The translations under genes and the position numbers were made by a program. Below are positions 21,784 through 39,910 of a DNA stretch of 64,000 bases, one piece after another. The notes under the pieces were generated by a model. It saw only the letters and a list, made by a program, of their open reading frames with translations. It searched no databases and was not told where the DNA came from. Each line of letters opens with the position of its first letter. Position 1 is the stretch's first letter. This DNA comes from Podarcis vaucheri (Eukaryota), in NCBI GenBank assembly GCA_965113315.1, contig OZ220369.1. One strand, given 5' to 3'.

Positions 21784-21975
21784 TTAATCCACCTCTTCGA
21801 TGGTGGGGCCTGAAGAGCCACCGCCAGCTCCTCCAGCTCCTGGGAAGCCCCCAGGCATCCCACCCGGCATGCCCCCGGGCATGCCCCCTGCCCCTTGGTA
21901 CAGCTTGGTAATGATGGGGTTGCAGACGTTCTGCAGCTCCTTCTGCTGGTGCTCATATTCATCCTTTTCCGCCAT
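21784..21975 (-). CDS. HSC70-like last coding exon
   Basis: ctcactcag|[14 protein letters not shown]...[11 protein letters not shown]. Confidence 0.96.
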
Positions 21976-24900
21976 CTGAGTGAGACAAGGAAAGAAGAGG
22001 TGCGATACCATTAAGGATATTCTGAACTTTAACAAGCTCGGCTTTTGTTTCCCATTCTAACAACAGATTGTACATTCTAGGTAGTAAGTTTTTCTTTGTT
22101 TTGTAAAAGTCCTTTTTCAAAGCGTGAGCTTTGGTCTGGGGGAAACCGTTTTTCCTGTCTGTTTTAAATGTTGCATATAATTGATGATATTGTAACCGGT
22201 CTGTAACATGGCCCCTTACATTTTCTTCTGATTTCAATTAAGCACCCACCCCCTTCTGTAAAGTGTAGCAATTCCCTGTAAGTTGCCCGTTGTCTATCCA
22301 TATTAACTCTCTTTATTGCAATAGCCTCAATGGGAGAGAGCCACAGAGGTGTTTTCCTTTCCAGCAAATTTTTATATTTCTTCCAAACTCTATACAAATG
22401 CTTCCTTAGAATATGGTTCATAAAGCCTTTATAGACTTTTGCCTTCCCATACCCAAAGGCATGCATGCCAGCCTTATTATTCAATGGATTATTGAATGGT
22501 TTAGTTCATGTAAAATATGCAGGGATGTACGGCATGAGAAATGAACCACCGAAAGAGAAGTCATTGATTTAAGGTTGTTTAAATGAGTATTTTGAAATGT
22601 AATTTAGAAAATTTAACAAAAATTGTGTGTATACACACACACACACACACGAGAAAACCCTCAGCTGGTTCCAGCCTTGAAGACAGATCAAAAGGGTCTA
22701 CGCTTCGGCGTTTTGCTCCTGTAGGAAGAGACACTGATTTCTCTGCCCTTCCTTAGCAGCTAGCACTCTTCCCAGGAAACCAGGTTTCAAGGAAAGTTAG
22801 ATTTGGCTTTTCAGCCAATCTGCAAAGGAGAAGATCTATATTACGCCAAACTTATGCTCCATCACTCGGATGCTTTGGCTGCCCTCTAGTGGAACACAGC
22901 TGAACAACACAACAACAACCCACGATTCAAAGGCGAACTCAAAATGCCGCAATAAGGTTCCAACAGAAGTGGAACCGACACGTCACACTTCCACTTGTGC
23001 TGTGCCTAGAAAGCATGGGTCTGAGAAATTCTTCCACTGGCCCTGCTCCTTTTCCAAGGGCAGATCAGCAATAGATCAGAACAAACAGGAATCCGGGGGA
23101 AACCCGAATTGCATTTGCTCTGATTGAGCGCTCAACAGCGCTTTCCCCCTGTGGGGGAGCCGTGGAACAAGAGAAAACAAAAGCCCTAAGTTACAATTCC
23201 CAGGAAAACCTGCAGAGAAGCCATGTTGCATCTATAGCAGTAAACAAAGCCTCGCTCGCCTGCAGTTTGCTGTGCTATACCAAGGCAACTAAGGTTGTTT
23301 ATCACTGGAGATCTGAAATCCTGTAAAAAAAGACAAAACACCTCCTTCTCTGCCATCACACATTGCTTTACTGCAGGCATGGGGGAGCACTGTGGCGCTG
23401 CAGAAGTTGCTCCCATTACCTCTTACTGTTACCCATTTTACAAGGGCATCTAATGGGAGCTGGAGTCATAGAAGCATAGTGTCACAGACTTAGAAGGAAC
23501 CCCAAGGTCCATTTAGCCCAACCCCCTGCAATGCAGGAATCTCTCAACTACAGCATTCACGACAGATAAACATCCAACCTCTGCTAAAAAAAACCTCCCA
23601 CAACATACAAAGTGCTGCAGGTTCCTCAACCTCACATTATCCTTTTGATTAAAGGTAAAGGGACCCCTGACTATTAGGTCCAGTCGCAGACAACTCTGGG
23701 GTTGCGGTGCTCATCTCGCTTTATTGGCCAAGGAAGCCGGCATACAGCCATGTGGCCAGCATGACTAAGCCGCTTCTGGCAAACCAGAGCAGTGCACGGA
23801 AACGCCATTTACCTTCCCGCCGGAGCGGTACCTATATATCTACTTGCACTTTGACGTGCTTTCGAACTGCTAGGTTGGCAGGAGCAGGGACCGAGCAACG
23901 GGAGCTCAACCCGTCACAGGGATTCGAACCACCGACCTTCTGATCAGCAAGTCCTATGCTCTGTGGTTTAACCCACAGCGCCACCCGCGTCCCTTCATTT
24001 TGATTATTATTTATTAAATGTGTATACTGCCCTTCACCCGCAGATCTCAGTGCGGTTCACAATGTAAAACTGCGATATTAAAACCACAAAATACATAGTA
24101 GAAATAAGAGCCAAACCTCCTCGACTGCTTGCAGTATGTGCCTCATGCTGTCCCATTTACCTTAACTTCCCCCTCCTGCTTCACTGTGGCTTCTTTTCCA
24201 AACAGGAAGTAAATTCTGAGACAAGTACCGCCGCAGCTCACACCCACTTCCCTTTGTAAGCTCACCTGGTTCCTGTCCAGCCAGGAAATGACCTCGTTGC
24301 ATTTGTCCAGGATCTTCTGCTTGTCCTCCGGGGACAGCTTGTCCTTGAGCTTCTCGTCTTCCGCCGTGCTCTTCATGTTGAAGGCCAGGGACTCCAGGGA
24401 GTTCTTGGCCGTGATCTTCTCCCTCTGGATCTCGTCCTCAGCCTTGTACTGCTCTGCCTCTTGGACCATGCGCTCAATCTCCTCCTTGCTCAGGCGGCCT
24501 GCGGCACGAGAGAGAAGCCACACAGGTCAGGGCAAACTGCTAAGCCGGGGTGGGGGGGCTGTCTGCAGGTTATCTGGATGGCCAATGCTCAAGGATGGTA
24601 GGAGATGGGACAGAGCAATCTGGCCACAGGTGTCTCCATGCCTGCTCCAAATACACTGATGGTGACTGGATGACAAGAGACACATCATTGTACTGTATGC
24701 CAAAATCCAGCCATTACACTAACATTCCCTAGATCCCAATCAAGGATTGATTTCCCCCAGTGGAAGAGGGAACAAAACTTAGGGGTCATCCACACCTCTG
24801 TTTCTCCCATGATTTCTTTTTAAAAAGTTTTTATTTATACTTTTCAAGTTAATACATTTCATTAGTTTTACAATCAATTTAACATTTCAAAGTTTGACTT

Positions 24901-39670: not shown

Positions 39671-39693
39671 GCGCCCGCCTGCTACTCCCAGGC

Positions 39694-39910
39694 TTTATAT
39701 GCAGACCGCCCTCCCCGCCCCTCTTATTGCGCGCTCTAGTGCATTTTTCTCTTCCCCACCCCGTTTAAGGGCGCTGACACTTTGCAGAAGCTTCTCGACT
39801 TGGCTTCGAATCCGTCCAATCCGGGCCCGGCTCGACTTGTCTGTCAACGAGGGAAGGGGCGGGGCCGGGCTCCAGCTGTCCTGGCGCGGGAGTGGAACTT
39901 TCAAGAAGCC
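39694..39910 (-). promoter_or_regulatory. Heat-shock promoter: TATA box, two HSEs, CCAAT box, GC boxes, within a CpG island (~38650-39980)
   Basis: TATAAA (-) 39694-39699; imperfect HSE TTGcaGAAgcTTCtcGAC 39782-39799; CCAAT 39816-39820; GGGGCGGGG 39856-39864; perfect 3-unit HSE GAActTTCaaGAA 39895-39907. Confidence 0.85.

Follow-up and report, generated by a model that had tools for sequence, protein, structure and literature searches.

Here we analyse an HSC70 gene of the lizard Podarcis vaucheri, carried on a 64,000-nucleotide stretch of contig OZ220369.1 (GenBank assembly GCA_965113315.1) that we call the window, and its relationship to HSPA8 and to other vertebrate HSC70 genes. The gene lies on the minus strand at 21784-34482. 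Its eight coding exons form an intact open reading frame (ORF) of 648 amino acids with no internal stop, all 7 introns have GT-AG borders, and GC content at third codon positions (GC3) is 0.81. In the exon model, the ATG exon (34278..34487) has a leader of 5 nucleotides (nt) and 205 coding nt, laid out as in human HSPA8. It is followed by exon 2 (32684..32889, 206 nt), exon 3 (30941..31093, 153 nt), exon 4 (29606..30161, 556 nt), which encodes the ATPase domain (Pfam PF00012, E 3.2e-80), exon 5 (26258..26460, 203 nt), and exon 6 (25800..25998, 199 nt), which encodes the substrate-binding beta domain. Exon 7 (24266..24498, 233 nt) encodes the helical lid and, in the alignments, holds most of the paralogue-specific residues (L545, D560, and P564 among them); the last coding exon (21784..21975, 192 nt including the stop) encodes the GGMP repeats and EEVD. 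An AATAAA polyadenylation signal on the same strand (21551..21556) lies about 230 nt past the stop.

The coding exons of human HSPA8 measure 205, 206, 153, 556, 203, 199, 233, and 186 nt, and its ATG exon is 210 nt long with a 5-nt leader (PMC2266713 Table S1). Set against that table, the 7 coding introns of the lizard gene all occupy HSPA8 positions, with splice codons and phases identical to those of the human gene, and the 5-nt leader is the same in both. An earlier note on this DNA had claimed HSPA8-type exon sizes and phases, GGMP repeats, and EEVD, and the exon model and the human table agree with it on each. The C-terminal tail has three GGMP units and a terminal EEVD. With full ATPase and substrate-binding domains, the Hsp70 signature motifs, and this terminus, the protein belongs to the cytosolic Hsp70 (HSPA) family; the HSPA8 intron positions and GGMP repeats make the gene HSC70-type. 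The coding span is 12.7 kb. The span of ~18 kb given in the earlier note equals the distance from a TATA box (39699) to AATAAA (21556), and would be that of the gene if the promoter described below serves the ATG exon by way of an untranslated exon, the arrangement of human HSPA8. On that measure the lizard gene is ~4x longer than HSPA8 (18 kb versus 4.6 kb). HSPA8 hosts U14 snoRNAs in its introns; an Rfam search of the introns of the lizard gene, at gathering score and at E up to 10 and with no positive control, gave no match to SNORD14/U14.

For comparison across vertebrates, we label the HSPA8 group A and the group of the lizard window gene B. A homologue search with the lid exon listed the best 120 of 1845 matches; among these, identity is 97% for gecko, skink, tuatara, and Sceloporus proteins, 95-96% for turtles, 88-95% for frogs, and ~79-84% for lungfish, sturgeon, and teleost "Heat shock cognate 70" proteins. 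A ranking of PDB chains against the lid exon, headed by HSPA1A, was not used, as no listed chain covers the whole HSPA8 lid. Further homologue searches and cluster look-ups, in which a cluster lists at most 15 members, brought the set to 520 proteins, among them canonical HSPA8 proteins from Podarcis, Lacerta, Anolis, alligator, birds, and mammals. Identity to the lizard protein over residues 1-612 is 97.4-98.9% for 13 squamate B rows, 94.9-96.1% for 7 turtles, 94.6-96.1% for 8 frog rows, and 92.8-93.0% for 3 lizard HSPA8 rows.

Counted as differences, the lizard protein departs from mammalian HSPA8 at 44 of these 612 residues, from lacertid HSPA8 at 43, and from frog B at 26; lacertid and mammalian HSPA8 differ from each other at 6. 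The earlier note had reported many substitutions at nearly invariant HSPA8 sites, in motifs that we locate at residues 114, 379, 530, and 559. The counts bear this out (44 versus 6) except that not every difference arose in the lizard gene: its G191, E315, and I536 are also the state of the lamprey, hagfish, and invertebrate rows, and at these three sites HSPA8 is probably the derived gene. Against Podarcis HSPA8, the ATPase domain differs at 19 of 383 sites, the linker and peptide-binding beta domain at 1 of 124, and the lid at 23 of 105, in agreement with the diverged lid domain claimed earlier. Between lizard and frog, the B lid differs at only 8 of 105 sites, and so appears to be kept in a different state of its own. 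The lizard protein keeps D10, K71, E175, T204, R469, E543, and K561; it has R in place of K583, and K601 is N in tetrapod B. These positions are presumed functional sites of Hsp70s, the lid lysines presumably in phosphatidylserine binding.

We built three maximum-likelihood trees from hand-picked subsets of 55, 49, and 30 rows, each over 612 columns with the C-terminal tail excluded. In the 55-row tree the lizard gene falls inside amniote B (99/95), and in all three trees every B row, from sturgeon and teleosts to lizards, lies on one side of a single branch, with support of 92/78 (55 rows), 95/88 (49 rows, starred), and 94/88 (30 rows). The clade thus unites the lizard gene, which carries the L545 lid signature, with lungfish, sturgeon, and teleost "hsc70" proteins. 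Within B, its position is that of a squamate other than a gecko, and repeat families suggest a lacertid. The approximately unbiased (AU) test rejects a grouping of the lizard gene with squamate HSPA8 (p=2.95e-05) and one that holds tetrapod A and B together (p=0.0034), so that the gene does not group with amniote HSPA8 as an orthologue. Both A and B are present in tuatara, Xenopus laevis, Engystomops, Mauremys, Hemibagrus, Brachyhypopomus, and Chanos; there is no squamate pair among these. On sequence grounds, the lizard gene is a separate HSC70 paralogue at least as old as bony vertebrates, because the trees join it to fish hsc70 and the AU test rejects a squamate or tetrapod duplication. The same comparisons show it to be orthologous to turtle, tuatara, frog, lungfish, sturgeon, and teleost genes.

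The exon layout, identical to that of HSPA8, could also fit a lizard gene that is the animal's own fast-evolving HSPA8, or else a recent squamate duplicate or pseudogene. The AU result (p=2.95e-05) speaks against this, as do the greater closeness to frog B (26/612) than to lacertid HSPA8 (43/612) and the intact ORF and splice sites; we regard the idea as hardly credible, and its recent-duplicate form is refuted by the trees. The earlier proposal of a separate, ancient, intron-containing HSC70 stands.

Lineage B already has a name in fish. Teleost hsc70 (zebrafish and medaka; distinct from hspa8a and hspa8b) belongs to the same clade as the lizard gene in the three trees, shares L545, R357, and mostly D560 and P/A/S564 with it, and is ~89-92% identical. 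Fish surveys list hsc70 as a possible paralogue of hspa8a/b (PMC6316144, PMC10531354, PMC7587057, PMC8646100). The name can mislead: a protein called "Heat shock cognate 70" (P0311) grouped with HSPA8 in the 55-row tree. NCBI entries called "heat shock cognate 71 kDa protein-like" from lizards, a snake, tuatara, turtles, and frogs are direct orthologues at 94-99% identity, and bear this name by automatic annotation only. Xenopus hsc70.II (P0247) and teleost hspa8b, in contrast, have the HSPA8-type Y545, fall outside the B clade, and are not orthologues of the lizard gene. The earlier suggestion that the gene is the orthologue of a known second hsc70 therefore applies to teleost hsc70 and the frog and turtle "HSC71-like" genes, and fails for Xenopus hsc70.II and teleost hspa8b. 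From amniote HSPA8, with which it shares 7 coding intron positions, GGMP repeats, EEVD, and a near-identical substrate-binding beta domain, the lizard gene differs at 43-44/612 residues (23 in the lid), in its neighbours, and in the lack of a U14 match. The lizard gene is thus an overlooked member of a known lineage, in which the fish hsc70 genes are known and the reptile and frog proteins are automatically annotated.

The genomic surroundings bear on how this lineage arose. On the plus strand of the window lie an immunity-related GTPase (IRG) gene with a single coding exon (51441..52655; Pfam IIGP, E 9.5e-103, and IRG matches in PDB), whose nearest named Atlas clusters are "interferon-inducible GTPase 5-like", and an LU-domain, or PLA2-inhibitor-like, gene (61911..63824) with a signal exon at 61911-61968 and further exons at 62286-62399 and 63655-~63815. 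The LU exon matches Pfam PLA2_inh at E 6.9e-5, just over the cutoff, and Atlas gave only a 0.76 lead. These are the two neighbours that the earlier note had named, and both assignments were confirmed by Pfam. They are the recognised genes of the 64-kb window, and the CLMP/BSX/CRTAM neighbourhood of HSPA8 does not appear among them.

Outside the window, neighbours can be read from mis-fused database gene models. In 9 teleost models and in bichir, the A-type gene is joined to a CRTAM-like protein; the A-type models of alligator and mole-rat are fused to an Ig protein (62% identity between the two), which we take to be CLMP. Among the fused B-type models, 5 from fish carry a CTRL-like protease (protease match 61-86%) and one, from flounder, carries a protein with the name PROSER3. 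Hepsin, a 19q13 gene, was considered for the protease fused to carp hsc70 and was dropped in favour of the CTRL-like match (61-86% in 5 models). Because the fused neighbours differ (CRTAM versus CTRL-like and PROSER3), the models indicate that A and B occupy different loci: HSPA8 is at the 11q24-type site, and B is at another. PROSER3, IRGC, and PINLYP are located at human 19q13; CTRL is not a 19q13 gene. The regions 11q23 and 19q13 are called paralogons in PMC4536121, as the earlier note had maintained.

Taken together, we place at about 80% the probability that the lizard gene is an intact cytosolic HSC70 of lineage B, which split from HSPA8 before the ray- and lobe-finned lineages diverged; in this reading it would derive from a whole-genome duplication (WGD), and B would later have been lost in mammals and probably birds. 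The WGD origin, judged by itself, is plausible and likely, with the odds moderately in its favour, but unproven. The earlier note had called the gene a retained WGD ohnologue. The old, separate paralogue in that claim stands; the WGD origin is not established, for no copy was found among 2 shark proteins, and the AU test rejects neither a placement of sharks inside the HSPA8 side (p=0.236) nor one outside bony-vertebrate A and B (p=0.31).

Several further observations weigh against the conclusion as a whole. The trees leave their backbone open, do not gather the HSPA8 side into a single clade, and, contrary to the species tree, place lungfish B with ray-finned B and not with tetrapod B; the rows had also been labelled B from shared residues before any tree was built. 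The neighbours of B genes differ, being IRG and LU genes in Podarcis vaucheri and CTRL-like and PROSER3 genes in teleosts, and IRG and LU genes, whose orthology to IRGC and PINLYP is putative, belong to multigene families and are weak markers. A and B of Xenopus laevis sit on contigs of equal length, as do those of Engystomops, and so probably share a chromosome (P0143, P0204, P0022, P0007). The B signature is found in 0 of 2 shark, 0 of 3 gar or bichir, 0 of 2 cyclostome, 0 of 1 salamander, and 0 of 1 crocodilian entries, a tiny sample taken from clusters in which members are hidden. Finally, the lid is also the most variable region among A-type proteins (lizard-frog 12/105, lizard-shark 14, lizard-lamprey 16), and its divergence alone is therefore no proof of new function.

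Some of these points would suit a duplication of this gene alone, or of a segment, in stem bony vertebrates once sharks had branched off, in place of a genome duplication. In its favour, B was seen in 0 of 2 shark proteins, the tree with bony-vertebrate HSPA8 and B together and sharks outside is unrejected (p=0.31), and both frog genes appear to share a chromosome. A placement of sharks within the HSPA8 side is equally unrejected (p=0.236), though, and both shark proteins share D315 and A191 with HSPA8, whereas cyclostomes, most invertebrate rows, and B have E315. Moreover, the neighbours of B include PROSER3-, IRG-, and PINLYP-like genes, with human relatives at 19q13. We consider such a stem duplication possible but doubtful.

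A second alternative, compatible with lineage B as an old WGD paralogue, concerns the relatives of B. It holds that the intronless inducible HSP70s (HSPA1 and fish hsp70) have their intron-bearing sister or parent lineage in B, and hence are not retrocopies of HSPA8 itself. B and inducible HSP70 lie on one side of a branch with support of 86/85 (55 rows) and 70/85 (30 rows), they share R357 and mostly P81 and I144, and fish hsc70 is filed under the HSPA1 group in PMC8646100 (Table 2). Yet the node is never starred and is open in the 49-row tree, a tree that keeps the HSC70s of jawed vertebrates in one group is not rejected (p=0.312), and several of the shared residues are ancestral. With only 3 inducible rows on a long branch, attraction is possible, and we judge the relationship unlikely. 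The view in PMC2266713 is that intronless HSP70s derived from HSPA8; we treat the grouping of B with inducible HSP70 as a lead against HSPA8 as the source of all of them, and as nothing further.

To follow lineage B across taxa, we define its signature as L545 with P, A, S, or L at 564, and compile taxon lists by hand from source names. The signature is present in 153 of the 477 proteins that cover the diagnostic sites. It is found in 0 of 91 mammal and 0 of 11 bird entries, many of which come from a search aimed at HSPA8 and from clusters that hide most of their members. Homologue searches (best 120 matches each) and cluster look-ups gave no B copy from shark, gar, bichir, salamander, or crocodilian. 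Among the taxa checked, only the absence from mammals is firm. It agrees with the part of PMC2266713 on human cytosolic group VI, where only HSPA8 has coding introns, and with the loss in mammals claimed in the earlier note. The loss probably extends to birds. As far as a chicken survey in PMC12872099 goes, the cytosolic members are HSPA2 and HSPA8, plus one unplaced locus.

Upstream of the coding exons, a CpG island (CpG o/e = 0.96 in 39001-40000) contains a putative core promoter on the minus strand (39694..39862), with TATA (39699), GC boxes, an inverted CCAAT, and a two-unit heat-shock element (HSE; 39794); its link to the gene is suggested by the human HSPA8 layout, which also points to a probable non-coding first exon at 39420..39670 (minus strand) with its donor at 39550 or 39419. 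Next to this promoter, at 39895..39907 on the minus strand, is a perfect three-unit HSE. Perfect elements of this kind number 3 in the whole window, and 7 of 5000 base shuffles of the 39700-40000 interval contain one. Together, a CpG and TATA promoter and a perfect HSE point to basal expression that heat would raise moderately. Fish hsc70 is reported to be constitutive and moderately heat-induced, with a log2 value of 2.13 in croaker liver (PMC6316144), and to be heat-upregulated in seabass liver and muscle (PMC8646100); judging by their naming, the hsc70 genes of these heat studies would be of the B lineage. Inside the first intron, a tRNA-like Rfam match (37086-37158, minus strand) is probably the head of a SINE.

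In the mechanism that we propose, the lizard protein would run an ordinary Hsp70 cycle of ATP-driven binding and release of unfolded peptides, with co-chaperones docking at EEVD, as is expected from its conserved ATPase residues and from a peptide-binding beta domain that departs from that of HSPA8 at 1 of 124 sites. From this near-identical domain, a client range overlapping that of HSPA8 would follow. The differences in the lid (23/105) and in part of the ATPase domain may tune lid closure, co-chaperone contacts, or membrane contacts, and expression would be basal and boosted by heat. The gene would have originated in one of the two early vertebrate genome duplications, with subsequent loss in mammals and probably birds. 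A bolder version, which we think quite improbable, is that two WGD copies of HSC70 have coexisted for more than 450 million years, that B was lost separately in mammals and birds, that B and not HSPA8 is the intron-bearing sister to the retrogenes for inducible HSP70, and that its lid changes (L545, P564, and K601N in tetrapods) suit variable body temperature.

In the full-text literature that we searched, we found no publication that ties fish hsc70 to the reptile and frog genes or to a mammalian loss; subscription papers on HSC70-1/HSC70-2 may state the orthology. Vertebrate HSC70 is treated as one node in PMC8423806, and the available portion of PMC9221867 does not address a second HSC70 lineage. 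A turtle gene list has one HSPA8 and two genes given as "HSPA1-like" (PMC6712388), and the lizard and turtle lists in PMC6316144 Table S1 and PMC6712388 Table 1 have no second HSC70 by name. Studies of heat stress in reptiles, amphibians, and fish use HSC70 and HSP70 as standard markers, and a second HSC70 with 92-93% identity and an HSE of its own is confusable with HSPA8 in quantitative PCR, antibody, and RNA-seq work. The pair also offers a natural experiment: two chaperones have nearly the same peptide-binding domain, while their lids differ and are each conserved in their own state, so that lid function becomes testable. Should the losses follow endothermy, or should B prove to be sister to inducible HSP70, the account in PMC2266713 of HSPA8 as single parent of vertebrate cytosolic Hsp70s would have to be revised.

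Minor observations concern gene copies in other species and the rest of the window. In bichir, two HSPA8-type genes are adjacent, one of them in a model fused to a CRTAM-like protein (P0500, P0501). In the skink Lerista edwardsae, B occurs as two nearly identical copies whose locus tags are close (014216, 014218; P0010, P0011), either a tandem or an assembly duplicate. Within the window, the third exon of the LU-domain gene either reaches a stop at 63824 or is spliced past the window end to a second LU domain. Between HSC70 and the IRG ORF, a CpG-rich stretch at 45500-46000 (o/e 0.76 in 45001-46000) resembles a promoter and may serve the IRG gene or one that escaped recognition. Positions 1-21000 gave no recognisable gene; just beyond the HSC70 polyadenylation signal, at 21118-21181 on the plus strand, is a partial U6 snRNA copy (model positions 1-62 of 105), probably a retroposed piece.

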